This document shows, one piece after another, positions 3,252 to 56,550 of a stretch of DNA of 64,000 bases (the stretch's first letter is position 1; each line of letters begins with the position of its first letter). The notes under the pieces are model-generated. The model was given only the letters and a program-made list of their open reading frames with translations. It ran no database searches and was not told the DNA's origin. The position numbers were made by a program, and so were the translations under genes. The stretch comes from Patescibacteria group bacterium (GTDB lineage: Bacteria > Patescibacteriota > Patescibacteriia > XYB2-FULL-38-15). Location of the stretch: NCBI GenBank assembly GCA_041653675.1, contig JBAZEY010000002.1, positions 12,315 through 76,314 of the forward strand, given 5' to 3'.

Positions 3252-3316
3252 AAAATTAAATTAAAATTACTTTCTCAATTATACCAAATTTTCTGCCAAA
3301 AATCCACCGCCAGCTC

Positions 3317-3345
3317 TTGACAAAATCAAAACTAAATGACAAGAT
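3317..3345 (+). promoter_or_regulatory. Sigma70-like promoter TTGACA-17-CAAGAT for module at 3373
   Basis: cTCTTGACAAAA followed by a 17-nt spacer and a -10-like hexamer. The AAAGGAGG ribosome-binding site follows. Confidence 0.4.
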
Positions 3346-3372
3346 AGGGCGAGGGAAAAGGAGGAAACTTCC

Positions 3373-3771
3373 ATGAATCAACCGGAAAATGAACCGGAAT
3401 GCCCGCGGATCATGTACCTGCTTTCGACCTGGCGGCCTTCGTCGGACAAGAAGGCGCCTGATCTCAAGGTGAAAGCCAGCGAAGAACGATGGATCTTCAC
3501 CGACAAAAAAAGGGGCGGCCTAATGTCGTCCAGGGCGAAGGCCAAACGGAGGATCGAAGAAACCAGGAAGAAGCTTCCGCCTGGTTGGGAACTCAAGGTC
3601 ACGGTGGAAGAATTTTCTGTCACACATGGTGCACCGGGATTCGTCCCTGTTCCTTGCCCGAACGCTTCTTGCTCCAAATTCGGCAAGCCCGCCGGACTGT
3701 TCTACTGCGGAACTTGCCGCGAGCCGCTTTCGCCCAAGATGGCCCAAAACGAGATGGAGGAAGAAGGGTAG
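3373..3771 (+). CDS. GC-rich small protein (132 aa) with C-terminal zinc-ribbon motif H..P..CPNASCSKFGKPAGLFYCGTC; paralogous motif in ORF 60790
   Basis: SD aaaggaggaaacttcc-ATG. The composition is GC-rich against AT-rich flanks. An intrinsic terminator follows. Confidence 0.55.
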   Translation: MNQPENEPECPRIMYLLSTWRPSSDKKAPDLKVKASEERWIFTDKKRGGLMSSRAKAKRRIEETRKKLPPGWELKVTVEEFSVTHGAPGFVPVPCPNASCSKFGKPAGLFYCGTCREPLSPKMAQNEMEEEG

Positions 3772-3781
3772 CGCTTCACGA

Positions 3782-4459: not shown

Positions 4460-4939
4460 TTACGGCGCGGTAAAACGGAAAGTAGAAATTATAAGTTCCC
4501 ATTCCTCAGCTACGGCCGGATCGCTTGGATCAGAATTGTAATCAACCGTCACCCAATTTTTCCCGTTCGGATGTTCTACAATAAAAGCCGGATCGCGGCT
4601 ATAGGTCGCGCGAAATTCACCCTCGCTATCCCAAGTTTCAATTTGTGCCCGATAAGATTGCGTACCCGGAACCGCTTCAATAAAATGTACCAAAGAGTGC
4701 GGCCAGCCGTAAGTATCAAAAATCGTTTTATATTTCGCGGGATATTTCATTTCAATCGCCCACGGAACGCTTTCGTAAACCTCCCAACCAGCGGTCGGAT
4801 CAGACGGCGCATTAACATTTGTCTCGGTCGTCAAAGGCGCATTTGTAGCCTCCTCTTCAGCCGGAAACCACGCGCACCCAGCTCCGGTCAAAATTAATAC
4901 TGCCAAAACCGCCACTGTCGGAAAAATAAATTTTTTCAT
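4460..4939 (-). CDS. Lipoprotein (signal peptide with LTGAGC lipobox), unknown function
   Basis: MKKFIFPTVAVLAVLILTGAGC N-terminus. Confidence 0.5.
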   Translation of the reverse strand: MKKFIFPTVAVLAVLILTGAGCAWFPAEEEATNAPLTTETNVNAPSDPTAGWEVYESVPWAIEMKYPAKYKTIFDTYGWPHSLVHFIEAVPGTQSYRAQIETWDSEGEFRATYSRDPAFIVEHPNGKNWVTVDYNSDPSDPAVAEEWELIISTFRFTAP

Positions 4940-4964: not shown

Positions 4965-5360
4965 TTATTTTGTAAGCGCGTTTGTAATCCAGCCAACCAC
5001 CCACAAAATTAATGCTCCTAAAAATGCGGCAACAAAATTTTTGACATCAAAACCTTTAACGATTGACGAGACGAGCCATAACATCAAAGCGTTAATCACG
5101 AGCGTAAAAAGTCCAAGAGTCAAAATATTTACTGGCAGGGTCAATAAAATTATAAGCGGCCTAATCACGGCATTTACCAAACCCAAAACGAGCGCAGCAA
5201 GCAACGCCGAGTAAAAATTTTTCACGGAAATACCCGGCACGACGTAGGTTAAAAGCATAATCGCTACGGCATAAATTAGCCAACGAATAAGGATACCCAT
5301 AAATTTTATGTTATTTATTAATTCTTCTTTAATTTTACCGCTATTGACTTTTAGCGTCAA
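4965..5360 (-). CDS. Phage_holin_4_2-family (4-TM) membrane protein
   Basis: The YVVPGI...ALLAALVLGLVNAVIRPLIILLTLPVNILTLGLFTLVINALMLWL pattern is typical of this family. Confidence 0.5.
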   Translation of the reverse strand: MTLKVNSGKIKEELINNIKFMGILIRWLIYAVAIMLLTYVVPGISVKNFYSALLAALVLGLVNAVIRPLIILLTLPVNILTLGLFTLVINALMLWLVSSIVKGFDVKNFVAAFLGALILWVVGWITNALTK

Positions 5361-5427: not shown

Positions 5428-5997
5428 ATGGATCGCGAATTAGAGCGACAATTAATCAAAAAAGCCCAGGAAAACGCCGCCGCTTTTGAGGAGTTGTATA
5501 GCCACTATCTCCCTAAAGTATACGGCTTTCTCCTAAATCGCACCGGCCAAAAAGAATTGGCCGAAGATTTGACGTCCGAAGTTTTTGCTAAGGCTCTGGC
5601 CAATATTTCTAAATTCAACGACCGAGGCGTGCCTTTTGCCGCCTGGCTTTTCAGAATAGCAAGAAATACATTAATTGATTGGAGTCGTAAAAAAAGAGAG
5701 ATTCTAACCGACGCCGTGGAAATGTATGAACCAGAACCAGATCATGCGGAGACGGGAGCCGTAGCCGGGCTTGTGCAGGACGAGAGAAAAATATTTATTA
5801 GAAAAACCATGAAAAACCTTCCGGAAAAATATCAGACCGTTTTATCTTTAAAATTTTTTGAGGAATTAGATAATGATGAAATCGCCGATATTCTTGGCTG
5901 CCAAAAAAATGCCGTGGCCGTAAGAGTTCACAGAGCTCTTCGTTTAATGAAAAAGCATCTGATCGGCAATCCTGAATTTTTGGAAATCAATTTTTAA
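5428..5997 (+). CDS. ECF-type RNA polymerase sigma-70 factor
   Basis: Region 2 (YLPKVYGFLLNRTG...AEDLTSEVF) and region 4 (DEIADILGCQKNAVAVRVHRALRLMKK) motifs. Confidence 0.8.
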   Translation: MDRELERQLIKKAQENAAAFEELYSHYLPKVYGFLLNRTGQKELAEDLTSEVFAKALANISKFNDRGVPFAAWLFRIARNTLIDWSRKKREILTDAVEMYEPEPDHAETGAVAGLVQDERKIFIRKTMKNLPEKYQTVLSLKFFEELDNDEIADILGCQKNAVAVRVHRALRLMKKHLIGNPEFLEINF

Positions 5998-6002
5998 TAG
6001 CC

Positions 6003-7871
6003 ATGTTTCAATTTTTAAATAAAAAATCAAAAAAATTCGCCAAGGCCTGGGAAGAAAAAAAACCGGCGGAACTTAAGGCTGAAGAAAAAATACTCTACGC
6101 CCTGGCGGGAAAAATCCAGAATGCGCGGCTCGCGCGGCCAGGAGAAGTTTTAATTTCTGAAATGGAAAAAAATCGCATCAGAGAAAATTTTTATCATAAA
6201 TATTTTGATCTTGTCGGCTCTGAAACACCTGCTCAAAATTTAATAAAGCAGGAAAATGGAGCTAAAGAATCAAGAAAGGAAACTTCTATGACTCTGCCTT
6301 GGAAATTTAGTAAAACGACCCTCGCCTGGGCTGGCGCAGCTGTAATCGTTTTGGCCTTAGCTCTTGGAGTTTATTTTACCCGCGGGCCTGGCGGAACAAA
6401 CGGAATTTTTAACGGAGCTCTCGCGGCGCATCTTTCCGTAGCTGACGGGCAAGTAGAAACCTGGAATGGAAGCGATTGGCAAAAAATAGAAACTGGAACT
6501 ACTATTGCCAGCCAGTCGCAAATCCGAACCGGAGAAAATAGTAAAGCAGTTTTAGAATTTGACGAAGGCAGCGCTCTTCGGCTAGACGAAAACACTCATA
6601 TAATTTTAGAAGAGATCAACAACAAAAATATTTCTGTCGCGCAAGTAGTTGGCGAAACTTATAGCCGCGTTAATAAAACTTCCGGCTTAACTTATAAAGT
6701 AAAATCTGGAGATGCGGAAACAACAGCGCTCGGCACAGCTTTTGGTGTAGCCACGGAAAAATCAAACTGGGTTAAAAAAGGTGAGAAAAAAGTTATTGTT
6801 AAGGTTGTGGAAAGCAAAGTAAAAGTAAAAATCGTAAAAAATGACGAGACATTAGAAAAAGAAGTGAGCGAAGGTGAAGAATTAATTGTTGATATGACAA
6901 AACCGATTGAAGATATTGCGAAAAAAATCCCTTTACCAAAAGAAGAAACCGCGCAAGATGGATTTTATGTCTGGAACCGAACAGAAGACAGCGAAAAATC
7001 TTATCCTCTAGGAGTTCTCTCTGACGTTACTCCGCCGGAAATAAATATCTCCGAACCTTTGGACGGAATTGAAACAGAACTCTACCGTGTTGCTGTCCGC
7101 GGCGCGACCGAAGCCGGAGCAAAAGTTTTTGTGAACGGAACTCTGACGGAAAATAAAGATGGATCCTTCGAAAAAATCATTGATCTAAAAGTTGGCGCGA
7201 ATACGGTTGAAGTGAAAGCAAAAGATGATTCTGGAAATGCTACTACTAAAAAAATTACCGTAACAAAAAAAGGCGAAGTCGTTCAAGCTTCACCGCTCTA
7301 TCTCAAAGGCTGGGCTGATTCCGAGGGCATACATCTTTCATGGTCACTTTCGGGAATTACCGCGCCAAAAGGATTTAAGCTTGTAAAATCACTCACGGCT
7401 TATCCGACTTACCCTGGCGATTCAGCGGTTTATCTAAATCCTGATACCAGAAGCTATCTCTGGCAAATCAATGATGGCAAAACTTGGCACTTCAGAGTTT
7501 GCGTCTACGAAGGCGGCGCCTGCGGTACTTACAGTAATGATTTAAAAATAGTTGCAAAATCAACTAGCACTTCTAGCAATGAAATTTACGGAACTCTTGC
7601 CCTGACCGGTTGGATAAAGACAGGAAAAATAGTCGTTCTCTCCTGGGCGCTTACCGGCAATTCTCCTTACGGATACAAAATAGTAAAATCTCTTGAACCA
7701 AATCCCGTTTATCCCGGCAATGAATATGTTTATCTTTCTTCGCCGGACATGAAAGGCAGCTATACCTGGGACGTTGGAGAGGCTGGCACCTACCATTTCC
7801 GCGTTTGCGCTTATAACGGCGGAGGTGGATGTGTCTTTTACAGCAACGACTATTCGGTAACCGTTCAATAA
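6003..7871 (+). CDS. Anti-sigma factor (single TM, FecR-like domain, large extracytoplasmic region with two repeated Cys-pair domains)
   Basis: Sits immediately downstream of the ECF sigma. TM helix LAWAGAAVIVLALALGVYF. FecR-like block (AVLEFDEGSALRLDENTHI). Two repeats ending WHFRVC.YEGG.CG.YSND. Confidence 0.6.
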   Translation: MFQFLNKKSKKFAKAWEEKKPAELKAEEKILYALAGKIQNARLARPGEVLISEMEKNRIRENFYHKYFDLVGSETPAQNLIKQENGAKESRKETSMTLPWKFSKTTLAWAGAAVIVLALALGVYFTRGPGGTNGIFNGALAAHLSVADGQVETWNGSDWQKIETGTTIASQSQIRTGENSKAVLEFDEGSALRLDENTHIILEEINNKNISVAQVVGETYSRVNKTSGLTYKVKSGDAETTALGTAFGVATEKSNWVKKGEKKVIVKVVESKVKVKIVKNDETLEKEVSEGEELIVDMTKPIEDIAKKIPLPKEETAQDGFYVWNRTEDSEKSYPLGVLSDVTPPEINISEPLDGIETELYRVAVRGATEAGAKVFVNGTLTENKDGSFEKIIDLKVGANTVEVKAKDDSGNATTKKITVTKKGEVVQASPLYLKGWADSEGIHLSWSLSGITAPKGFKLVKSLTAYPTYPGDSAVYLNPDTRSYLWQINDGKTWHFRVCVYEGGACGTYSNDLKIVAKSTSTSSNEIYGTLALTGWIKTGKIVVLSWALTGNSPYGYKIVKSLEPNPVYPGNEYVYLSSPDMKGSYTWDVGEAGTYHFRVCAYNGGGGCVFYSNDYSVTVQ

Positions 7872-8198: not shown

Positions 8199-8849
8199 TT
8201 ATTTTTTCTCCTTTCTATACATTAAATAACTATAAACTGTAGTGATGATCACAACGGTAAACACGCTCGCAATTAAAACGACAAAGCTAGCAACGCTGCC
8301 AAAAAAAGCAGCCACTAAACTCGCTACCCCGGCTAGGACAAAAACCTTCCCGCCAAAATCGTGTGTCTTCTTCCAATTTTCATCCGAAACGAGAGTCCAC
8401 GGCGTCTTAATTCCAATAAAAAAATTTCTTTTAAGTTGTGGCAAAATCCATCCGATAAAACATAAAAGCAAAGAAAATGGAATTGCAAACATCAAGCTTC
8501 CTTGCGGCGGGCTAAAACGGACTGACGAGTAAAGCAAAAATATTTCTAAATATATAAAGAAGAACGCCAGAAAAATTTTAAAGTAAAGATACGGTTTGGC
8601 AAATTTTTCGTAATTTTTGCGAAAGGGGTCAATCAGCGGCAGAAACGACATAAGAAGATATGCCGCGAGAGCAATGCTTGGCATCAAAAATAAATTAATG
8701 TATTTTGATCCCCAACCATCAACCTCTCCCCTAATATTCCAATGTGTCGGCACGCGGTCGGCCATAGCAGGCGCCATATAAATTCCTACTGCGAAAATCA
8801 CAAGAATAAAAAAAATCATCAGCCAGTCTATTTTTCTCCAAAGTTTCAT
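8199..8849 (-). CDS. DUF1648/SdpI-family membrane protein
   Basis: N-terminal DUF1648-like THWNIRGEVDGWGSK followed by multi-TM SdpI-like helices. Confidence 0.45.
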   Translation of the reverse strand: MKLWRKIDWLMIFFILVIFAVGIYMAPAMADRVPTHWNIRGEVDGWGSKYINLFLMPSIALAAYLLMSFLPLIDPFRKNYEKFAKPYLYFKIFLAFFFIYLEIFLLYSSVRFSPPQGSLMFAIPFSLLLCFIGWILPQLKRNFFIGIKTPWTLVSDENWKKTHDFGGKVFVLAGVASLVAAFFGSVASFVVLIASVFTVVIITTVYSYLMYRKEKK

Positions 8850-12299: not shown

Positions 12300-12357
12300 C
12301 ATACTTGTGGATAGATATTATATTTATCTATTTTATCATATTTTTGAAAAGATGAGG

Positions 12358-18482: not shown

Positions 18483-20060
18483 TTAAATTAGCGCCGCTCC
18501 AGTCATTTCATCTGGCTGCTTAATGTCCATTATTTTCAAAATTGTCGGAGCGACATCGGCTAAAACCCCAACCGAGGGCATTAAACTAAGATCTGCTTCT
18601 ACCGGAGGAATCGCGGCGATCTGATCCTTTAATTCTCGCCCGGCCAGGATAAAGGGCACAGCATTGGTACTATGTTCTTTATCAATATCTCCGGTTTGTA
18701 AATTAAAAACTTCTTCAGCGTTCCCATGATCCGCGGTAAGCGCCAAAACTCCGCCCATTGGAATTATTATATCCGCTATCTGGCCTACGCACTTATCTAC
18801 GGTCTCCACGGCTTCCACGGTCTCCTTATATTTCCCCGTGTGCCCAACCATATCGGCGTTCGCAAAATTAACCACAATAAAATCGTATTTCCGCGCCATA
18901 ATTTCCTTAATTAATTTTTCAGTAATAATTTTGGCGGACATCTCGGGTTTTTGATCGTAAGAAGCGACGTGCGGTGAAGGAACAATAATTCTGTCTTCTC
19001 CAGAAAATTCTTCTTCTCTCATGCCGTTAAAAAAGAACGTTACGTGAGCATATTTTTCCGTTTCCGCTATGTGAAGTTGTTTTAATCCGGCATCACTTAT
19101 AATTTTTGCCAGGCAAATTTTTACTTTTTCTGGCGGAAAAATAACTTCGACCGGCAAACCCTCTTCATATTCCGTCATTGTGGCGAAAAATAATTTTGGG
19201 AAAAATTTTTCTCTCTTAAATTTATCAAAATCTTTTATAACAAAAGATTTGGTCATTTCTCTCGCGCGGTCAGCGCGATAATTGAAAAAAATTACCGCGT
19301 CATCTTCCGAAATTGTGGCGACTGGTTTTTTTCTTTCCGTAATCACAACTGGAACAAACTCTTCGTCATAAATTTTCTTCGCATATGACGCTTCGATTGC
19401 TTTTATTGGATCAGAAAAATATTCTTCGCTTTTCCCTTCGGCAATGGCTAGATAAGCTTTTTCCGTTCTATCCCAACGATTGTCGCGATCCATCGCGTAA
19501 AAACGTCCGGAAACGGTGGCAATTCTTCCCACACCATACTCTTTAATTTTTTCTTGTAATTTTTTAATAAAATCGGATCCGCTGTTATAAATTGTATCTC
19601 GCCCATCAAGAAAACAATGGATGTAAACATTTTTTATTTTTTGCTCTTTGGCAAATTTCAGCAACGCATAAAGATGCTCACTTGTTGTATGAACGCGCCC
19701 GGTACTCACAAGACCCATCAAATGAAGACTTGATTTATTTTTTTTAACATGTGCGGCGGCGTCTCTTAAAGCTTTATTACTAAAAAAAGAACCGTCACCG
19801 ATGGCTTTATTAATTCTAGGGAGCGTTTGATAAAAAATTCGTCCCGTACCCAAATTCAAATGGCCAACTTCTGAAGTCCCCATTTCTCCCCAAGAAAGGC
19901 CTACTTCATCCCCAGAAGCCCGTAGGGTCATCGCGGGATATGTAGCTATTAATTTATCAACATTCGGCGTTTTAGCGCCTGAAATGGCATTCCCCTTTCC
20001 TTTCGGAGCAACCCCCCATCCGTCTAAGATAGCAAGCACTACTGGTTTTGGACGATTCAT
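18483..20060 (-). CDS. gpmI: 2,3-bisphosphoglycerate-independent phosphoglycerate mutase
   Basis: LAILDGWGVAP N-terminus. Full-length iPGM. Confidence 0.85.
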   Translation of the reverse strand: MNRPKPVVLAILDGWGVAPKGKGNAISGAKTPNVDKLIATYPAMTLRASGDEVGLSWGEMGTSEVGHLNLGTGRIFYQTLPRINKAIGDGSFFSNKALRDAAAHVKKNKSSLHLMGLVSTGRVHTTSEHLYALLKFAKEQKIKNVYIHCFLDGRDTIYNSGSDFIKKLQEKIKEYGVGRIATVSGRFYAMDRDNRWDRTEKAYLAIAEGKSEEYFSDPIKAIEASYAKKIYDEEFVPVVITERKKPVATISEDDAVIFFNYRADRAREMTKSFVIKDFDKFKREKFFPKLFFATMTEYEEGLPVEVIFPPEKVKICLAKIISDAGLKQLHIAETEKYAHVTFFFNGMREEEFSGEDRIIVPSPHVASYDQKPEMSAKIITEKLIKEIMARKYDFIVVNFANADMVGHTGKYKETVEAVETVDKCVGQIADIIIPMGGVLALTADHGNAEEVFNLQTGDIDKEHSTNAVPFILAGRELKDQIAAIPPVEADLSLMPSVGVLADVAPTILKIMDIKQPDEMTGAALI

Positions 20061-20102: not shown

Positions 20103-21665
20103 TTAACTTAATAAACTTTTTTTTGTCATTTCTCTCGGTGCCGTCACTCCCATTACGTCAAGAACGGTCGGCGCGACATTAGCCAAAACTCCTTTTGGCA
20201 ATTTTTTTCTTTTCGGATTTTTAAAACGCGGACCGACCACAATAAATGGCACGGGATTTCTGGAATGTTCGGTGTCAATTTCTCCGCTCCTTGAGTTTAT
20301 CATTTCCTCAATATTTCCATGATCTGCCGTAATAATTGCTGTTCCTTCCCTTCTCCAAACGCCACGAATTATTTTTCCAAGACATTTATCGACTATTTGC
20401 GCCGCCCTGATTCCCGCGGCTAAATTTCCCGTGTGGCCAATCATATCCGGATTGCAAAAATTAACTGCCACAAAATCGTATTGCCCACCATCAATCGCCC
20501 GCCTAACTTCAACAGCAACTTTTTCCGCGTTCATTTCTGGTTGATCTTCATAATGCGGCGTCATGGGCGACGGAACTTTTATCCTCTCTTCTCCATAAAG
20601 CGCGTCGGCATTGCCACCGTTAAAAAAATATGTGACGTGCGCGTATTTTTCCTCCTCAGCAATATAAATTTGCTTCTTATCGCGAAGAACTGCCGGCAGA
20701 GCGCTCAAAATATTGCGCGAGGGATACGCTGTTAAAATATGGGGTAAATCCGGACCGAAATCAGTCATCGCCGCGAAAACAATATTTTTAGGAAATTTTC
20801 TTCTTCTGAACGACCCTGGATTTTTTTTAGTAAAATCTTTCTGTACAAAAGTTTTGGTTATTTCTCTTGCTCTATCCGAACGTAAGTTAAAGAAAATTAC
20901 TACATCGTCGTCGCCAACCGTTGCGATTGGTTTATGGTCATTCGTGACAACCGTGGGCATAATAAATTCATCAGTTTCTCCGCGGTTGTAGGCAGAAGAA
21001 ATCGCCGCTTCAGCCGATTCCGCCGTCGCCCCTTCGCCAAGAACCATAGCATTGTAGGCCGCCTCAATTCTCGGCCATCTTTTTACGCGATCCATCGCGT
21101 AGAAACGCCCCATAATGGAAGCTATTCTTTCGCCGTTATGAAAATGCGTTTTTAATTTTGGCAATAATCTAATCGCGGCAAAACGCGAAGAGTCGCGGCC
21201 ATCCGTAAAAAGATGTAAAAATATTTTTTTAACTTCGCTTTGGTGCAGCAAATCCAAAACTGCGTAAAGATGACCCGGGGAAGAATGGGCACTCTCGCCG
21301 TTTGAAAGCAGCCCCATTACATGAACCTTGCTGTTATATTGTTTGGCATGCCTTATGGCTTCAAGAAAAGCTGTATTTTTATAAAAAGTTCCGTCTTTAA
21401 TACTTTCGTTGATGTACATCGCGTCCTGTTTTACAATCCAACCAGCGGATAGATTCATATGCCCGGCTTCTGAATTCCCTTCTTGATCGTTTGGCAAACC
21501 AACAAACTTTCCGTGAGCGGAAAGCAAAGTATGGGGGAATTCTTCCCAAAGCGCAGTCATCGTTGGGGTTTTCGCGAGGGTTATGGCATTACCCGGCCCC
21601 GGCGGCGCTACTCCCCACCCATCGAGAATAACAAGCACGGTTGGTTTTTTATGATTTTTATCCAT
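20103..21665 (-). CDS. gpmI: Second iPGM paralog in tandem
   Basis: LVILDGWGVAPPGPGNAI N-terminus. Colinear with the upstream copy. Confidence 0.8.
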   Translation of the reverse strand: MDKNHKKPTVLVILDGWGVAPPGPGNAITLAKTPTMTALWEEFPHTLLSAHGKFVGLPNDQEGNSEAGHMNLSAGWIVKQDAMYINESIKDGTFYKNTAFLEAIRHAKQYNSKVHVMGLLSNGESAHSSPGHLYAVLDLLHQSEVKKIFLHLFTDGRDSSRFAAIRLLPKLKTHFHNGERIASIMGRFYAMDRVKRWPRIEAAYNAMVLGEGATAESAEAAISSAYNRGETDEFIMPTVVTNDHKPIATVGDDDVVIFFNLRSDRAREITKTFVQKDFTKKNPGSFRRRKFPKNIVFAAMTDFGPDLPHILTAYPSRNILSALPAVLRDKKQIYIAEEEKYAHVTYFFNGGNADALYGEERIKVPSPMTPHYEDQPEMNAEKVAVEVRRAIDGGQYDFVAVNFCNPDMIGHTGNLAAGIRAAQIVDKCLGKIIRGVWRREGTAIITADHGNIEEMINSRSGEIDTEHSRNPVPFIVVGPRFKNPKRKKLPKGVLANVAPTVLDVMGVTAPREMTKKSLLS

Positions 21666-40225: not shown

Positions 40226-40239
40226 AAAATTAAAAAATA

Positions 40240-40265
40240 ATCCGGCCGCAAGGCCGGTTTTTTGA
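40240..40265 (+). terminator. prfA intrinsic terminator ccggccgcaaggccgg + T-run
   Basis: Perfect 6-bp GC stem followed by TTTTTTG. Confidence 0.6.
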
Positions 40266-40280
40266 TATAAATTTTGACAT

Positions 40281-40592
40281 AAAAAAAGAGTCGGTCGAAC
40301 GAGGTGTTCGACCGACGGGCACAACGCGAAACGTAGCGGTGTGCAAAGAAGGGTGACCTCCGTACCCGCTAAAAGCGGATTTGGAGGATCGAAAACGCGG
40401 GGGAGATTTCAGCCCACCTGCATAACAGGCAAGCCGGGTTCCTGCTGGCCACCCCTGGGTCCTTCCTCCACGAGATCATCCGCGCTTCAACGCGCGGCTT
40501 CCACTCGAGGACTCCGGATTTGGGATGAGAAAAAATTACCCACGACGCCAGTGCGCTGCCGGCATCAACCGAACAGGACTCCCCTTTACCCT
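40281..40592 (-). ncRNA. Candidate ~300-nt GC-rich noncoding RNA transcribed from the minus-strand half of the palindromic divergent promoter, ending at a minus-strand intrinsic terminator (hairpin 40290-40316 + T7)
   Basis: No convincing ORF in any frame. Promoter TTGACA-17-TAAAGT on the minus strand. Terminator gtcggtcgaacacctcgttcgaccgac-TCTTTTTTT on the minus strand. Multiple internal GC hairpins. Confidence 0.35.
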
Positions 40593-40599
40593 GCACTGC

Positions 40600-40664
40600 A
40601 CTTTAACATAATTATCAAAATTTGTCAAGAGTCTCTTGACAAATTCATCTTTTTGTAATATTAT
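40600..40664. promoter_or_regulatory. Divergent promoter pair sharing a perfect 27-bp palindrome AATTTGTCAAGAG-T-CTCTTGACAAATT (40619-40645); plus-strand TTGACA-17-TATTAT, minus-strand TTGACA-17-TAAAGT
   Basis: Both -35 hexamers lie within the palindrome arms. Spacers are exactly 17 nt. Confidence 0.5.
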
Positions 40665-40788
40665 AAAAACATCAAAACAGGGTGGCCTTGTGTTCTTGGC
40701 GCGTGCCAGAAACGCAAGGAAGGTGGCCCTAAGCCTCGGCCTGATGGACAGGACGAGTTGATAATAGGGAAGGTAGTGGAGGACAGAG

Positions 40789-41004
40789 ATGTCGAGTAGT
40801 GTTTTCTGGGACGACGGTACAAGGCTCTCAGCGGACGGTGTCCCCATCATCCCCGATGGTGCGGGACCGCGCGAGATTTCACAGCGCCGCAGGACGAGCA
40901 GACAGCTCGACGACTTCTTCCCCGACTGGGAGGAGGAACACCGCCGGAACGAGGAAGCCAGGCGGCGCGACCGCGACCGCCGTCGTGATGGCGTCCGCTG
41001 CTAA
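40789..41004 (+). CDS. GC-rich 71-aa Arg/Asp-rich small protein
   Basis: SD GGAGGA 6 nt before the ATG. Strong terminator downstream. About 125-nt structured leader. Confidence 0.45.
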   Translation: MSSSVFWDDGTRLSADGVPIIPDGAGPREISQRRRTSRQLDDFFPDWEEEHRRNEEARRRDRDRRRDGVRC

Positions 41005-41162
41005 CACCAGCCCCAGCCCACCCACCAACAACGTGAGAACGCGCGAGCAATCGCTCGTCCTCCGTCCGAATTTACGCCGCCCCTCCCGGACTCGGCGTAA
41101 GAGCCCGCGTAGCGGATCGCAGGGGACATGAGTCCCGCCTCCCTCCCCGCTGCCGGGCGACC

Positions 41163-41222
41163 AGCCCGTGGATTGTTTTGGAGACCTCCCCTCCTCCGAA
41201 CAATCCACGGGCTCTTTTTTAT
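41163..41222 (+). terminator. Intrinsic terminator (agcccgtggattgtt ... aacaatccacgggct + T-run)
   Basis: 15-bp perfect stem followed by CTTTTTTATT. Confidence 0.6.
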
Positions 41223-41391
41223 TATCAAGCGAGTGAGAGAAATGAACTTATTCATTTCCGAGCGAGCGCAGATAACACGGAGTATTATCAAGCGAGTGAG
41301 AGAAATGAACTTATTCATTTCCGAGCGCCCGGCCTCGCCGAAGACGGCAAGTCGAGGCGGGAGCGCAGATAACGCGCAGTATGTTATAATG
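41223..41391 (+). promoter_or_regulatory. Tandem 42-bp direct repeats each containing 20-bp palindrome GAAATGAA-CTTA-TTCATTTC, plus repeated AGCGCAGATAAC(A/G)CG(G/C)AGTAT motif, ending in extended -10 TGTTATAAT just upstream of prmC
   Basis: Units at 41223-41264 and 41286-41327 are identical. Centre-to-centre spacing is 63 bp. TGTTATAAT at 41383-41391. Confidence 0.5.
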
Positions 41392-41396
41392 ATCCT

Positions 41397-51170: not shown

Positions 51171-51596
51171 ATGGCTAAAAAAATTAAGACAGTAATAAAA
51201 TTACAAATTCCAGCTGCCAAGGCAAACCCGGCGCCGCCAATCGGCCCAGCGCTCGGCCAGCACGGTTTGAATATCGCTGAATTCTGCACGAAGTTCAACG
51301 CCGCCACCGCGAAAATGGCCGGCGATATTATTCCGGCGGAAATTACGGTTTTTGAAGATCGAACTTATACTTTTATTTTGAAAACTCCTCCGGCGGCTGA
51401 ACTTTTGAAAAAAGCTGCGGGGATTGAAAAGGGTTCAGGAAAACCGCTTCAGGAAAAAGTTGGAAAAGTGACTAAAGCCCAAATTCGAGAAATCGCTGAG
51501 AAGAAAATGCCCGACTTAAATGCAAATGATATTGACGCGGCAATGAGAACTATTGAAGGCACGGCGAGACAAATGGGTTTGGAAGTTATTGGCTAA
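51171..51596 (+). CDS. rplK: 50S ribosomal protein L11
   Basis: [23 protein letters not shown] motif. Confidence 0.9.
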
Positions 51597-51618
51597 AAAA
51601 TAATTGAAAATCTAATTT

Positions 51619-52053
51619 ATGGCTTTCAAATTTAGCTCAATTAGAACTGTCTATTTCTATCTAATCGCCCTGATTGCATTGATGATGATTGTCTGGGGCA
51701 CGGTTGATCTCGCGAATCTCGGACTTAGAACTTGGGTTTTTAAAAACGCTGATAAAGCCGACGACTGGTCAATGCCTATGCCGTATCTGACAGCTGAAGT
51801 GAAAATGGGAGAAACGGCGGAACGCTGCGCGGAAAAATGCGACCTTACTGATAATGATAAACAACAGATTCAAAATTGGCTTGCTGAATATAAAAATTGG
51901 CAAGACCAAAATAATTTACGCACAGCAAGAAAACAGAAAAACGCCGTTCGCGATATTTCTATGTTAGTTGTTGCTATTCCCCTATTTGTCTGGCACTGGA
52001 AAATGATCAGTAAAGAAACAAAAGAAGCAAAAGAAAACAATAAAGAAGTTTAA
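51619..52053 (+). CDS. Hypothetical membrane protein inserted between rplK and rplA
   Basis: ORF with N-terminal TM helices. Its position inside the L11-L1 operon is unusual. Confidence 0.4.
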   Translation: MAFKFSSIRTVYFYLIALIALMMIVWGTVDLANLGLRTWVFKNADKADDWSMPMPYLTAEVKMGETAERCAEKCDLTDNDKQQIQNWLAEYKNWQDQNNLRTARKQKNAVRDISMLVVAIPLFVWHWKMISKETKEAKENNKEV

Positions 52054-52113
52054 ATAAAATAATTAATTTCGTGGGAGTCCGCCAAAGGCGGACGTTATTA
52101 CCACCAAAAACTT

Positions 52114-52791
52114 ATGCGCGGAAAACGCTATCAGGAGGCAAAAAAATCCATTGACCCTAAAAAGAGCTACTCTCTCGCTGAGGCTGTGGACATGATTAAA
52201 AACGGTCCTAAAGAAAAATTTGATGCCGGCGTGGAAGTCCACATCAAACTCGGCATTGATCCCAAAAAAGGCGATCAATTAGTGCGCGGCACTTTAGTTT
52301 TACCGCACGGAATTGGCAAGACCAAAAAAATCGCGGCTTTCGTTGAACCGGCTTTGGAAAAAGAAGCCAAAGAAGCCGGAGCGGAAATCGTCGGCGGCGA
52401 AGATTTGATTAAAGAAATTAAATCTTCGGAAAGAGCTAATTTTGAAATCGCCGTGGCGACTCCGACCATGATGCCTAAATTGGCCCAGATCGCGAAAATT
52501 TTGGGTCCAAAAGGCTTGATGCCAAACCCGAAGACAGAAACGGTGAATCCAAATATCAAAAAAATCATTGGTGAATTGAAAAAGGGCAAAATCAACTTTA
52601 AAAATGATGATGGCGGAAATATTCATCAATTGCTCGGCAAAGTTTCCTATGATAAAGAAAAACTTTTGGCAAATCTGACAATGTTTGTTGAAGCGGTGAA
52701 AAAAGCCAAACCGGCCGCTGCCAAAGGCGTTTATATTCAAACCGCGGTACTTTGCACCACAATGGGCCCGGCAATAAAAATCGGAGTATAA
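52114..52791 (+). CDS. rplA: 50S ribosomal protein L1
   Basis: Conserved L1 fold motifs along the full length. A hairpin gtccgccaaaggcggac lies in the leader at ~52074-52092. Confidence 0.9.
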   Translation: MRGKRYQEAKKSIDPKKSYSLAEAVDMIKNGPKEKFDAGVEVHIKLGIDPKKGDQLVRGTLVLPHGIGKTKKIAAFVEPALEKEAKEAGAEIVGGEDLIKEIKSSERANFEIAVATPTMMPKLAQIAKILGPKGLMPNPKTETVNPNIKKIIGELKKGKINFKNDDGGNIHQLLGKVSYDKEKLLANLTMFVEAVKKAKPAAAKGVYIQTAVLCTTMGPAIKIGV

Positions 52792-52809
52792 TTCAAAATC
52801 TATACAGCA

Positions 52810-52838
52810 AAAACACCCTGGAAAACGGGGTGTTTTTA
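52810..52838 (+). terminator. rplA intrinsic terminator (acaccctggaaaacggggtgt + TTTT)
   Basis: Stem-loop followed by a T-run. Confidence 0.5.
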
Positions 52839-52869
52839 GTCTGCTTTTTGGCGCTATTTCCCCTCTTGA

Positions 52870-52999
52870 CCCCGTAGTAGAATTTCGACTTTACTATTAT
52901 CTTTTATTGTTTCTAGATTTACGTCGCGCAATAAAGATTTTGTATTTTTCTCGTTTTATTTGGCCCGCAGAGCGGGCTTGTCGAAATTTCACTACGGGG
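52870..52999. repeat. 130-bp hairpin element copy 3 (CCCCGTAGTAGAATTTCGAC ... GTCGAAATTTCACTACGGGG; inner hairpin GGCCCGCAGAGCGGGC; TTGA flanks 52866-52869 and 53000-53003)
   Basis: Read directly. Intergenic, with no adjacent ORF start. Confidence 0.7.
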
Positions 53000-53143
53000 T
53001 TGATTTTTAATTGCCTATTCTTTTTCGTTTTGCTAAAATATAAGGGCTTAAAAGCCCGTGTTGGCTCCTCGGCTCGGAAATGTGAAACCACATTTCTCTC
53101 GCTCTACGTCGCCAATAGGGACTAACTAACACATAAAATCTAT

Positions 53144-53674
53144 ATGGGAAATTTACAAAATCCTAGAAAAAATCGCCTGTCTTGGGACGAAACTTTTATG
53201 AATATGGCGCTGATTTTGGCGCAACGCACCGCCTGCAAGTTTCATACCGCCGGAGTCGTCTTGGTTGATAATAATAAAAGAATTGTCTCGGTTGGCTATA
53301 ATGGCCCGACCGCTGGCGATGACCATTGTTTGGAAGTCGGCTGCGCCAAAGTTGACGGCGATCCTGTCACGGGAAAATTAAAACGCTGCCGCGGTGCGCA
53401 CGCTGAAATAAATAGCATTATCAACGCGCAAGACACGAGGAGGCTGGTGGGCGCGACGGTTTATACCGCGCTTTATCCTTGCTACGACTGCATGAAAGCG
53501 TTTAACAACGTCGGCGTCAAAGAAATAGTTTATTTTGAAAAATACGAACGGATAAAAACCGGCGGTGAAGGAAAAGAAGAAGAAAATGAAGCGCAGGAGT
53601 TGGCTGACAAGCGAGGAATTAAAATCAGGAAATACGACGGCCCGGTTTATTGCAACATTGATTTTACTAAATAA
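53144..53674 (+). CDS. comEB: dCMP deaminase (ComEB family)
   Basis: HAEINSI zinc site and PCYDCMKAF. Confidence 0.8.
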   Translation: MGNLQNPRKNRLSWDETFMNMALILAQRTACKFHTAGVVLVDNNKRIVSVGYNGPTAGDDHCLEVGCAKVDGDPVTGKLKRCRGAHAEINSIINAQDTRRLVGATVYTALYPCYDCMKAFNNVGVKEIVYFEKYERIKTGGEGKEEENEAQELADKRGIKIRKYDGPVYCNIDFTK

Positions 53675-53696
53675 ATTATTGACGGAAAAATAAAAT

Positions 53697-54245
53697 ATGA
53701 TTCTCGGAATAAAAAAATTACACGAATTAGTTAAAGAAATTAATTTAGTGGAAAATTTATGCGACCGGGAAATGAATAATCCCGAGGGCGCCGGTTTTGA
53801 TTTGCGGCTCGGAGAAATTTATGAGCTTGAAGGCGACGGATTTTTAGGCGTGGAAGAACGAAACACGCCGGCCATAAAACTTGTGGCAAAAAATGAGGAA
53901 GGAAAATCTGAACAGGAAAACTCTTTTGTTTTTGAACCGGGAAAATATTATTTAGTGAAAACTATGGAAAAAGTAAACTTGCCGGTGACAGTTTCCGGAA
54001 TTATTTTTCCGCGCACCACGCTATTCCGCTCCGGCTTGGGACTTTTTAACGGCATTGTTCAGCCCGGCTACCAAGGCGAACTCACTTTCGGACTTTGCAA
54101 TCTAGGAAAATCAAATATCAAAATTTCTTTCGGCGCGCGAGTCGTGCACATCACTTTTCATGAAGTGCTGGGCGAAGGCAACCAATACCGCGGCCAGTGG
54201 CAAGGCGGCCGAGTCGCGACTGGTGGCAAAGAAGTGCAAGTGTAA
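53697..54245 (+). CDS. dcd: dCTP deaminase / dUTPase-superfamily protein
   Basis: RTTLFRSGL and QPGYQGELTFGLCNLG match Dcd core motifs. Confidence 0.65.
   Translation: MILGIKKLHELVKEINLVENLCDREMNNPEGAGFDLRLGEIYELEGDGFLGVEERNTPAIKLVAKNEEGKSEQENSFVFEPGKYYLVKTMEKVNLPVTVSGIIFPRTTLFRSGLGLFNGIVQPGYQGELTFGLCNLGKSNIKISFGARVVHITFHEVLGEGNQYRGQWQGGRVATGGKEVQV
54184..54245 (+). repeat. Direct repeat R1 = native 3' end of dcd (…YRGQWQGGRVATGGKEVQV*)
   Basis: Matches R2 (54615-54646) and R3 (55142-55203). Confidence 0.6.
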
Positions 54246-54268
54246 CAAACCACTTAATATAAACTGCT

Positions 54269-54595
54269 ATGGAGCCAAGCGGCGAACAAAATAAAGATAC
54301 GGAAATTGCGCGCAAACCACATGCATATCTTGAATTTGGTTCGTCTGGGCACGAAACAGAATATCTTTTCACAATTCAAAAAGATAAATACAGCGAAGCT
54401 CGAGAATTGCCGTTTGAATGGGAATCTAAACTATTTAAAAAGTTAGGACCAGGTTGGGGTGTCGCAAATAGAGGAGCAAGAATTGAAATTATTCCACCGG
54501 ATTCAAAACGCACTCCCGAGACTGACGTGAAAGTTAAAGAGACTATAGGATCTTTACTTGGCAATGAATATGAATTTGTTGAAAAATCACAATAA
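54269..54595 (+). CDS. Hypothetical 108-aa protein (cassette 1 at dcd 3' end)
   Basis: ORF lying between repeats R1 and R2. Confidence 0.4.
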   Translation: MEPSGEQNKDTEIARKPHAYLEFGSSGHETEYLFTIQKDKYSEARELPFEWESKLFKKLGPGWGVANRGARIEIIPPDSKRTPETDVKVKETIGSLLGNEYEFVEKSQ

Positions 54596-54614
54596 AAAAA
54601 TCTATAGGCCAATA

Positions 54615-54646
54615 TCGCCGCTGACGGCAAAGAAGTGCAAGTATGA
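54615..54646 (+). repeat. Direct repeat R2 = truncated copy of dcd 3' end (encodes AADGKEVQV* in dcd-like frame); its stop overlaps the GNAT start (gtATGa)
   Basis: tcgccgctgacggcaaagaagtgcaagtatga compared with the R1 sequence tcgcgactggtggcaaagaagtgcaagtgtaa. Confidence 0.55.
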
Positions 54647-55143
54647 TAAAAATTAGAAAACATTTACAAAAAGATATTCCCTACCGTGTAAAATGGTTAA
54701 ATAATCCCGAGGTAAACAAATTTATTGGTGACGAGATGGGACAAAAGACAAATCTGAAAAAAGAAAAAGAATGGTTTTCTAATTATCAAAAAGCGAAAAA
54801 CAAAAAATTTTTTACTATCTGTGACGATTCCAAACCAATAGGTTTTATGGGATTATCGCATATTAGCAAGTCCAATAAAAACGCTGATTTATTTATTGTT
54901 ATCGGCGAAGATGATTATCGCGGCAAGGGAATCGGGAAAATTGCCATAAAATGGTTGATTAATTATGGATTTAAAAAATTAAAACTCCACAAAATCAATC
55001 TCGGTGTCGTTAGAGACAACAGCCATGCAATTAAAGTATATCGAGAATTGGGTTTTATTATTGAAGGAAAAATGAAAGACGAAATTTTTTATAAAGGTAA
55101 GTATCACGATTTTTTGTCCATGGCAATTTTTAATAGAAATTAA
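54643..55143 (+). CDS. GNAT-family N-acetyltransferase (cassette 2)
   Basis: Acetyl-CoA-binding motif region (RGKGIGKIAIKWLINYGF) and a RimJ/L-like size. Confidence 0.7.
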   Translation: MIKIRKHLQKDIPYRVKWLNNPEVNKFIGDEMGQKTNLKKEKEWFSNYQKAKNKKFFTICDDSKPIGFMGLSHISKSNKNADLFIVIGEDDYRGKGIGKIAIKWLINYGFKKLKLHKINLGVVRDNSHAIKVYRELGFIIEGKMKDEIFYKGKYHDFLSMAIFNRN

Positions 55144-55203
55144 TACCGCGGCCAATGGCAAGGCGGCCACGTCGCAACCGGCGGCAAGGAAATACAAGTT
55201 TAA
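55142..55203 (+). repeat. Direct repeat R3 = near-complete re-coded copy of dcd 3' end (encodes YRGQWQGGHVATGGKEIQV*)
   Basis: About 80% nucleotide identity to R1. The differences are mostly synonymous or conservative (R->H, V->I). Confidence 0.6.
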
Positions 55204-55235
55204 AATTAAAAAAATAATTATTAACTTACAAACCT

Positions 55236-55550
55236 ATGGAACAAAAAAAATTCAACCCTATGGAACAAAAAAAAATTGAACAAATACCACTTCCGGAAAT
55301 CACACAATGCAAAACATCTGAAGACTATGAAAAATTAACAGACAAATGGTATGCCGAAGGATTCAGAATCGCCGGAAAAGAAGAAAATGGAACAAGACTT
55401 CAATCGTTAGTAGACGCCTATCGCGGAGATCCGGAGATAACAGACATACGATTAACTACTTGTTACATACCGGGTACTTCGCAAAATGATTATAGAAGCG
55501 TGGAATTGGCGGGATTCACCGCGGTCTGGATCAAAGAAAAAAAGAAATAA
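55236..55550 (+). CDS. Hypothetical 104-aa protein; N-terminus contains a tandem duplication (MEQKKFNP / MEQKKIEQ)
   Basis: ORF, with an internal duplication at the DNA level. Confidence 0.35.
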
Positions 55551-55551
55551 T

Positions 55552-56550
55552 ATGGATAAACATCCTGAATACCAATATCTTGACCTCGCGCAAGATATTT
55601 TAGATCACGGTTCGGACAAAAAACTTTTTTTCACTCCCGAAGTTTTGGAGGAATATAAAAAGAAAGGCGAAGAACCGCCGTTTATTCGTTCGGTTTTCGG
55701 TCGGCAGATTAGATTTGACCTGTCGCAAGGTTTTCCGCTTTTGACCACGAAAAAAACTTTTTTCCGGGGAATTTTGGTTGAACTTCTTTGGTTTTTATCG
55801 GGAAGCACAAATATTAAACCACTGCTTGATCAAAAAGTTCATATTTGGGACGAATGGGCATGGAAACGTTACCATAAATATTGTGTTGCCTCGGCGCCGA
55901 CGGAAGATCTGACGCAAGAACAATTTATCGCGAAACTGGAATCGCTTCCGGCGGACGATGAATTTGTAAAAAAATGGGGCGACTTAATTATGGTTTACGG
56001 AAAAATGTGGCGGCGCTGGCCGGCCTCGGACGGCCGGGAAATTGATCAGCTCGGCTGGTGCATTCAAGGTTTAAAAGAAAAACCATTTAGAAAATCTTAT
56101 GTTGTTTCCGCCTGGAATCCGGATTTTATTTATGCCATGGCGAGCAAGGGTAATGCCAACGAAGTTCCGCCGTTTTGCCACACCACTTTTCAATTTCAAA
56201 CTACGGCTGACGGAAGATTGAATCTTGGACTTTATCAACGCAGCGCCGATTTATTTTTGGGCGTGCCGTTTAATATCGCGAGTTACGCCATGCTTTTACT
56301 AATGGCTGCGCAAATTACGGGACTTAAACCCGGAGAATTTGTCCATACTTTTGGCGACGTGCATATTTATTCAAATCATTTTGAACAAATTAAAGAACAA
56401 CTCTCGCGAAAACCATTCCCCTTCCCTACTCTAAAAATTAATCCTGATATAAAAAATATCGACGATTTCAAGTTTGAAGATTTTGAATTACAAAATTACG
56501 AATCTCATCCGGCGATCAAAGCGGAAATCGCAAACATCGGAGGATTTTAA
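55552..56550 (+). CDS. thyA: Thymidylate synthase ThyA (with insertions)
   Basis: Folate and dUMP-binding motifs ([10 protein letters not shown], the Cys-containing [10 protein letters not shown], and [17 protein letters not shown]). Start set at MDKHPEY to avoid overlap with the upstream gene. Confidence 0.85.

Follow-up and report, generated by a model that had tools for sequence, protein, structure and literature searches.

Gene content of the locus and the repeated dcd terminus

The window analyzed here, a 64,000-nt stretch from a Patescibacteria group bacterium (positions 12,315 to 76,314 of contig JBAZEY010000002.1), encodes an operon for synthesis of deoxythymidine monophosphate (dTMP) in which the 3' end of dcd, the gene for an enzyme of the dCTP deaminase/dUTPase family, occurs three times. 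The genes of the operon are ordered dCMP deaminase, dcd, a gene for a protein of 108 amino acids (aa), a GNAT acetyltransferase gene, a gene for a 104-aa protein, thyA, folA, a P-loop kinase gene and tmk. The copy at the end of dcd itself (R1) is the working terminus, and two displaced copies (R2 and R3) lie downstream of it (Table 1). As a first-pass annotation of this DNA had described, the 108-aa gene lies between R1 and R2 and the GNAT gene between R2 and R3, with the TGA stop codon of R2 overlapping the ATG start codon of the GNAT gene (GTATGA). The window has a GC content of 42% and is a segment of a low-GC, Falkowbacteria-like Patescibacteria chromosome; the Pfam annotations include those of many housekeeping genes (gyrB, nusG, rplK, rplA, gatB, miaA, miaB, prfA, prmC, ftsW and genes of glycolysis). 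Within the operon, the GC content of the GNAT and 104-aa genes is 30-33%, compared to 40-50% for dcd and thyA.

The repeats noted in the first-pass annotation, and the peptides that it read from them, were reproduced: R1 and R3 are identical at 52 of 62 nt, and the tail of R2 matches that of R1 at 26 of 32 nt. The 5' edge of R2 shifts, to about 54605 rather than 54615, as a gapped alignment with a single 1-nt indel pairs 54605-54646 with positions 54206-54245 of R1; nothing significant was found further 5' by gapped alignment. The possibility that R2 is full-length, and either shares its start with R3 or has lost an internal segment, was rejected (shuffle P = 0.14-0.43). Relative to the end of dcd, R2 begins at about -40 and R3 at about -62 to -65. 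R3 begins right after the TAA of the GNAT gene and is in frame behind that stop codon. The 17-mer GGCAAAGAAGTGCAAGT, with up to three mismatches allowed, occurs in the 64 kb only at the R1, R2 and R3 sites (chance expectation 0.16), and the 25-mer at the head of R1 occurs only in R1 and R3 (chance expectation 0). No match to the dcd end of at least 22 of 30 nt is present in the 53.5 kb upstream. That R2 is in frame with the 108-aa gene and R3 with the GNAT gene was judged to be chance (about 1 in 9), because in the array at another locus, L112 (see below), copy T3 is out of frame with its neighbor.

The blocks of identity between R1 and its two relics do not coincide. R1 and R2 have in common a run of 17 identical nt at the 3' end, and at the 5' end two blocks of 13 nt are identical between R1 and R3; a looser block near the stop codon is common to all three. 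No hairpin structure was identified in R1, R2 or R3, which fold no better than shuffled sequence (z +0.5 to -0.6). A scan for promoters and terminators at R2 and R3 returned nothing above chance, and there are no Rfam matches in the locus or elsewhere in the window.

The proposal of the first-pass annotation that each copy was once a functional dcd terminus is borne out by several observations. Eight of the ten differences between R1 and R3 fall at third codon positions. Compared with 85 real dcd ends, the R2 tail contains no unseen base, and R3 contains a single one, which turns the invariant Arg of the motif YRGQWQGGR into His. In addition, R2 and the GNAT gene are joined in the same way, through an ATGA overlap (GTATGA or ATATGA), as intact dcd and GNAT are in four relatives (L008, L089, L090 and L110). 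Together, the third-position differences, the near-absence of unseen bases and the shared junction support the view that R2 and R3 are former working dcd ends. Of all 25-mers in dcd, the one at the start of R1 and R3 is the most conserved (mean pairwise identity 0.872, against a mean of 0.735 for the gene, in 54 species), which would make it a natural homology anchor beside a variable region.

The dcd-thyA slot in related genomes

We compared the locus with 80 species-level dcd loci (56-98% amino acid identity) and 54 metagenome loci that carry GNAT homologues. The genes dcd and thyA follow one another in 44 loci, and in 18 of these the slot between them is empty (a gap of less than 125 nt, and only 16 nt in L007 and 11 nt in L010). 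The remaining loci have one or two unrelated small genes in the slot: GNAT alone, RibD_C with GNAT, a 175-aa protein with GNAT, NUDIX, NDK (on the opposite strand), HD-domain proteins or, in L004, a GIY-YIG/T5orf172 protein. Empty and differently filled sites, which it had been suggested to look for when the DNA was first annotated, thus both occur. Four relatives (L004, L006, L088 and L089) have a dcd with 96-98% amino acid identity to that of the window and a thyA with only 84-87%. From this mismatch and the varied contents, we conclude that the slot is a recombination junction and a hotspot of gene gain and loss.

A second copy of the dcd end was found in none of more than 85 related dcd loci, which include at least 26 lineages with filled slots. 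Nine relatives that carry GNAT lack an attR-like relic, and no relic is present in the four with the intact dcd/GNAT junction. Thus, events that form relics are the exception at this slot. The R2/GNAT junction is that of relatives without a relic, and the donor therefore probably looked like ordinary chromosomal DNA. The gene cassettes proposed in the first-pass annotation are not supported as self-contained units: the GNAT gene with its piece of dcd end looks like a relative's ordinary chromosomal DNA and not like an element that carries an attachment site of its own.

The last 40 nt of R1 are closest to L004, with 2 differences compared to 6-8 for the other relatives (a short tract in a conserved region), and the preceding 228 nt of dcd are closest to L006 and L085. 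This pattern may point to a crossover a short distance 5' of the dcd end.

The slot of L004 (5578-6303), the closest relative by dcd, encodes a GIY-YIG/T5orf172 protein with a homing-endonuclease-associated repeat. A free-standing homing endonuclease could have cut near the dcd/thyA junction, with imprecise repair from diverged templates duplicating the ends; the similarity of R1 to the dcd end of L004 and the unusually diverged thyA of L004 and L006 would agree with such a process. However, among about 145 loci the nuclease gene was found in just one, no remnant of it was seen in the window, and its closest homologues occur in unrelated contexts, with more than 4000 family relatives across phyla. 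We consider this origin very improbable. The L004 gene was also rejected as a dedicated dcd-site homing endonuclease, given its relatives in other contexts.

One further slot, that of L052, spans 771 nt without an open reading frame and holds a 136-nt tandem repeat with 99% identity (L052:5610-5881).

Gene-end repeats at other loci

When about 0.99 Mb of fetched loci were compared with themselves, in a repeat screen limited to 30-200 nt, the same footprint appeared at six other loci (L112, L101, L106/L107, L067, L135 and L114; Table 1). The relics found are 31-89 nt long and have sharp edges. At L101, where the repeated segment includes a terminator, pairing in the terminator hairpin is preserved by a compensatory change. 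At L112, the GNAT gene is followed directly by a diverged fragment from the 5' part of a second GNAT allele, a sign of imprecise joining of homologous DNA rather than of site-specific exchange. Relic-bounded inserts at seven loci (about 12 kb) contain no recombinase. With six further loci, allelic gene-end relics beside small inserts are a recurring feature of these genomes.

In seven pairs of copies from six loci, differences are distributed over the three codon positions as 6/6/28, which departs from a random distribution (P = 2e-6) and from the third-position share of 0.47 expected for duplication in place followed by decay (P = 0.003). These values bear on another possible origin of the array, in-place duplication (a long target-site duplication or a tandem one) followed by drift, or an artefact of assembly. 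The copies are indeed direct repeats that lie close together, and one joint shows microhomology (see below). The third-position bias, however, rejects local decay, and the genes between the copies are mutually unrelated. The latter also excludes a tandem duplication of a single region, one of two outcomes that the first-pass annotation had named as refuting its interpretation. The identical array is also found in independently assembled contigs of at least three other samples (from ENA, JGI and Logan), so it is not an artefact of assembly. We find this group of explanations barely credible. A transposon target-site duplication was rejected as well, given repeats of 40-62 nt, an allelic pattern of divergence and the lack of a transposase in the window.

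One of the contigs, L001 from ENA, corresponds to window positions 51378-55947. It is identical to the window over 51594-55799, but its outermost 150-215 nt on each side diverge by 6-14%. This could mean that homologous recombination, through crossovers in rplK and thyA, carried the complete array from one strain to another; alternatively, the ends of the contig are chimeric.

Origin of the array

The joint between the GNAT gene and R3 can be read at the level of single bases. The GNAT protein of the window is cut at ...IFNRN by this joint, and homologues elsewhere end with ...IFNRNQNKK. The joint reads AGAAAT/TAATACC (here and below the stroke marks the joint), where GNAT homologues read AGAAATCAAAAC and dcd reads GGCAACCAATAC. 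Over a longer stretch, the end of GNAT homologues that lie in unrelated contexts is ...AATAGAAATCAAAACAAAAAATAA, the sequence of the window is AATAGAAAT/TAATACCGCGG and that of dcd is GGCAACCAATACCGCGG. The GNAT tail and dcd match at 8 of 12 nt, with a CAA core, and thus the joint lies within a short microhomology. The GNAT stop codon at the joint is the product of a C-to-T change.

We favor, with about even confidence, an origin in which DNA was gained from the chromosomes of relatives through one homologous crossover and one illegitimate joint at microhomology. Two separate acquisitions in the dcd-thyA slot would have left R2 and R3 as dead dcd ends. In each event, DNA from a related chromosome with different slot genes would be incorporated, with one incoming end recombining homologously in a conserved flanking gene (dcd for the 108-aa gene, and dcd or thyA for the GNAT or 104-aa gene) and the other joined illegitimately, via a few bp of microhomology in or beside the resident dcd end. 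Because one end would be homologous and the other illegitimate, two dcd termini of different ancestry would be kept. R1, attached to the gene body, would stay functional, and the displaced R2 and R3 would be non-coding relics, which may be retained because they carry signals for expression of the gene that follows. An equivalent product would arise by tandem duplication and subsequent allelic replacement, or by circularization and then a single crossover. Four elements of this account are inferred: the recombination route, the sequence of events, the uptake of DNA through natural competence and the retention of relics for expression signals.

A possible order of events starts from the dcd/GNAT-thyA state found in four relatives. 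An event anchored in thyA may then have added the 104-aa gene with about 65 nt of a donor dcd end (R3), and a last event, anchored in dcd, may have added the 108-aa gene with a donor dcd end (R1), displacing the native end (R2). The opposite order, in which a genome of the form dcd-104aa-thyA received GNAT, would fit equally well.

Such a route corresponds to homology-facilitated illegitimate recombination, in which a homologous anchor is combined with an illegitimate joint at 3-10 bp of microhomology (PMC6382021); the GNAT/R3 joint fits this description. Further points of likeness are the gain of foreign genes beside a conserved gene by means of no dedicated recombinase, and a donor that resembles a relative's chromosome. 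The process is known from laboratory selections, and its occurrence in Patescibacteria is proposed here from sequence. Genes for competence and homologous recombination have been reported in Patescibacteria (PMC12455944). The Pfam annotations of the window include no com or recA genes, although no search was aimed at them.

Several points weigh against this origin. We found no donor genome with a dcd-108aa arrangement or an R3-type dcd-104aa-thyA arrangement, and the microhomology result covers the GNAT/R3 joint only. The C-to-T change that creates the GNAT stop codon is an extra mutation that the scheme requires. Homology-facilitated illegitimate recombination usually loses recipient DNA, whereas the dcd locus duplicates it, twice; in the work of de Vries and Wackernagel from 2002, duplication of recipient DNA is reportedly not the usual outcome. 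That a rare event would have occurred twice in one lineage, and twice again in L112, recalls the accretion that is typical of site-specific elements. Finally, uniformly short relics (31-89 nt, from a screen limited to 30-200 nt) are predicted by attachment sites and not by random illegitimate joints.

Accretion of this kind was the interpretation of the first-pass annotation, which proposed serial site-specific insertion. Small integrative elements whose attachment site imitates the 3' end of dcd could have arrived in series, each pushing the previous terminus downstream and leaving att-flanked units without an integrase, the recombinase having been lost or acting in trans. The textbook mark of such elements is a gene 3' end that is repeated directly on both sides of foreign DNA and re-coded in the proximal copy, and serial insertion at one site has been described for tycheposons (bioRxiv 10.1101/2020.12.28.424599). 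The double relics at dcd and at tgt in L112, the shortness and sharp edges of all relics, and the block near the stop codon at the extreme 3' end that R1, R2 and R3 share would fit as well, and a phage-integrase-family gene adjoins a GNAT homologue in L094. However, there is no gene-end repeat around the L094 integrase. As the first-pass annotation noted, no integrase lies nearby, and we identified no Pfam match to a recombinase or transposase in any sizeable open reading frame of the whole 64-kb window; nor do the relic-bounded inserts at seven loci encode one. R2 and R3 differ in their starts and in their blocks of identity with R1, so that two specificities would be required. The nine GNAT-bearing relatives without an attR-like relic, and an R2/GNAT junction that is the chromosomal junction of relatives, also speak against an element. 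The units, at 0.4-0.56 kb, are far below the size of known integrative elements, and units with the same R boundaries were not found in the more than 85 related dcd loci, the only match being the identical array. Thus, serial acquisition at the dcd end stands, but a site-specific recombinase is not supported by copies with differing starts and no hairpins, or by at least 26 filled slots without relics. We regard serial site-specific elements as the main alternative, possible but less probable than recombination with relatives' DNA. If a recombinase is responsible, the units would be unusually small mobile units that lack an integrase.

A special case of recombination with relatives' DNA, which we consider quite improbable, is that the units travel as cassettes whose distal dcd end acts as the right homology arm. 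Recombination dependent on RecA would then suffice for entry into any genome that has a conserved dcd end, and loop-out between the repeats would be possible. The start of the repeat at the most conserved 25-mer of dcd, the barely decayed relics and the recurrence of the architecture at tgt, folA and other genes would be expected under this scheme, and competence for DNA uptake has been reported for Patescibacteria (PMC12455944). On the other hand, dcd relics are present in one lineage among more than 85, all contigs that encode these proteins show the same array, with no loop-out variant on record, and the runs of perfect identity between copies (13-17 nt) are short for RecA.

More generally, small cassettes (GNAT, toxin-antitoxin systems, small enzymes) might move independently of an integrase in Patescibacteria, and perhaps in other organisms with very small genomes, although we think this unlikely. 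A cassette of this type would travel with the re-coded last 10-26 codons of a conserved host gene, which would serve as a portable homology arm after uptake. On insertion, the host gene would be restored and its former terminus pushed aside, and arrays would form as the process is repeated. Such a process would explain the dcd array along with the scars at the tgt, folA, methyltransferase, AAA+ and histidine kinase genes.

Relation to known systems

The elements e14 and phage 21 integrate into the 3' end of the protein-coding gene icd of Escherichia coli, and ICESt1 integrates into that of fda; each brings a substitute terminus. As at the dcd locus, the last codons are re-coded by mostly synonymous changes that keep the gene intact, and the old terminus is displaced as a direct repeat. 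Those elements differ in having a length of several kb or more, their own integrase and one defined crossover core, whereas the dcd units are only 0.4-0.56 kb long, have differing boundaries and lie in a window without an integrase.

Tycheposons and additive islands also resemble the dcd array, in that newcomers push older units inward and leave partial target copies between cargo (bioRxiv 10.1101/2020.12.28.424599), and both tycheposons and the dcd locus occur in streamlined genomes. Unlike the dcd array, tycheposons target tRNA genes and encode tyrosine or serine recombinases and replication modules, none of which were found at the dcd locus. Integrons likewise form arrays of single-gene units of about 0.5 kb in which GNAT genes are common cargo, but their cassettes carry attC hairpins and are moved by IntI. 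The dcd and tgt copies are pieces of the neighboring gene and are unstructured (z about 0); because they fold no better than shuffled sequence, they are not attC-like.

The dcd array adds an example to a class of recombination scars that is already known, and the recurrence of such scars across loci is worth a systematic survey. How genes are gained in host-dependent bacteria with very small genomes and few mobile elements is poorly understood, and the dcd locus provides two gains at base-pair resolution, the displaced gene ends marking the joints and indicating that the incoming DNA came from related chromosomes. With comparable scars at six further loci in about 1 Mb of related sequence, it seems that these organisms regularly gain new genes by imprecise recombination at conserved gene ends. 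Gene-end relics could also serve as markers with which to count or date acquisitions in metagenome-assembled genomes.

Inserted genes and other features of the window

Table 1. Features of the dcd locus (positions in the window) and of the comparable repeats at other loci (positions in the respective contig).
Feature	Position	Strand	Remarks
dCMP deaminase gene	53144..53674	+	First in operon; Pfam dCMP_cyt_deam_1, E = 8.6e-21; syntenic in most relatives
dcd, dCTP deaminase/dUTPase family, 182 aa	53697..54245	+	Pfam DCD, E = 1.9e-23; 3' end repeated
R1, working dcd terminus	54184..54245	+	Last 62 nt of dcd; encodes YRGQWQGGRVATGGKEVQV, then stop
108-aa gene, uncharacterized small-protein family	54269..54595	+	Acquired cargo; HMMER family
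R2, displaced dcd terminus relic	54605..54646	+	Last ~40 nt; encodes (I)AADGKEVQV, then stop; gapped alignment to R1
GNAT acetyltransferase gene, 166 aa	54643..55143	+	Pfam Acetyltransf_3, E = 1.6e-18
R3, near-complete dcd terminus relic	55142..55203	+	84% identical to R1; encodes YRGQWQGGHVATGGKEIQV, then stop
24-nt tandem duplication across start codon of 104-aa gene	55229..55274	+	Repeats first codons; 95% identity
104-aa gene, acquired cargo or native slot gene	55236..55550	+	
thyA, conserved right border of variable slot	55552..56550	+	Pfam Thymidylat_synt, E = 2.6e-95
L112, tgt 3' end, three copies	3277-3355, 5602-5680, 6286-6336		Array includes GNAT homologue
L101, methyltransferase gene, last 13 codons and terminator, two copies	2485-2559, 4981-5055		Around four small genes
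L106 and L107, 64-nt terminator segment	L106:3829-3892, 4519-4582		Flanks GNAT
L067, folA end	7562-7592, 8265-8295		Flanks hicAB pair
L135, AAA+ gene end	5457-5545, 6725-6813		Flanks nucleotidyltransferase gene and 176-aa gene
L114, histidine kinase gene end	798-853, 3719-3774		Flanks radical-SAM gene and 245-aa gene

The 108-aa protein has no Pfam or PHROG match. A word-index protein search with both small proteins returned only self-matches, but a later full HMMER search placed the 108-aa protein in a family of 39 homologues with invariant residues H28, E31, G60, W63 and E73; the homologues are located in unrelated contexts. The AlphaFold2 model of this protein has a predicted local distance difference test (pLDDT) score of 91, with no convincing match among solved structures. 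No relatives of the 104-aa protein were detected in the searches made; its fold is predicted with moderate confidence and has no informative structural match. The possibility that the 104-aa gene begins with a duplicated thyA start was rejected (P = 0.13-0.40). Neither the 108-aa nor the 104-aa region shows tblastx or blastn similarity that would identify it as a decayed known slot gene, and viral contigs yielded no relatives of either dcd or the 104-aa gene.

The GNAT gene of the window is 92% identical in nucleotide sequence to the slot GNAT genes of L005 and L008. Outside the dcd slot, GNAT occurs in a unit of about 0.6 kb with imperfect inverted repeats of about 50 nt (GTTAGGCGAAATTGCAAAAAC...ATG ... 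GTTTTTGCAACATCGCCTAAC), for example at L091:3450-4041 and L093:449-1041, and also in L092, L094, L101 and L103, in several unrelated contexts. The left arm of this unit partly recurs upstream of other genes (L093 and L105) and may be a promoter or leader module and not a transposon end. The slot copy lacks the inverted repeats seen around GNAT elsewhere. In a GC-rich contig, L128, a GNAT-like gene lies between two repeats of about 82 nt (391-472 and 1229-1310) with inverted ends (GGGACAG...CTGTCCC), which look like attC sites of integron cassettes.

Upstream of the operon, rplA is separated from the dCMP deaminase gene by a spacer of 350 nt (52792-53143), which contains a strong hairpin of terminator type (52809-52837) and an inverted repeat of 21 nt whose loop measures 90 nt (52869-53000), with no Rfam match. 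The genes rplJ and rplL do not come after rplA in the window. Elsewhere, prfA and prmC, which are usually neighbors, are separated by about 1.17 kb without a convincing gene (40226-41396). This gap contains a strong GC-rich terminator-like hairpin near 41166-41215, again without an Rfam match, and a perfect 45-nt direct repeat (41220-41264 and 41283-41327, with 63-nt spacing). A similar motif (GCAGATAACACGGAGTAT) is present in a 76-nt repeat of L092. Adjoining pgk are tandem diverged paralogues of cofactor-independent phosphoglycerate mutase (18483-20060 and 20103-21665).

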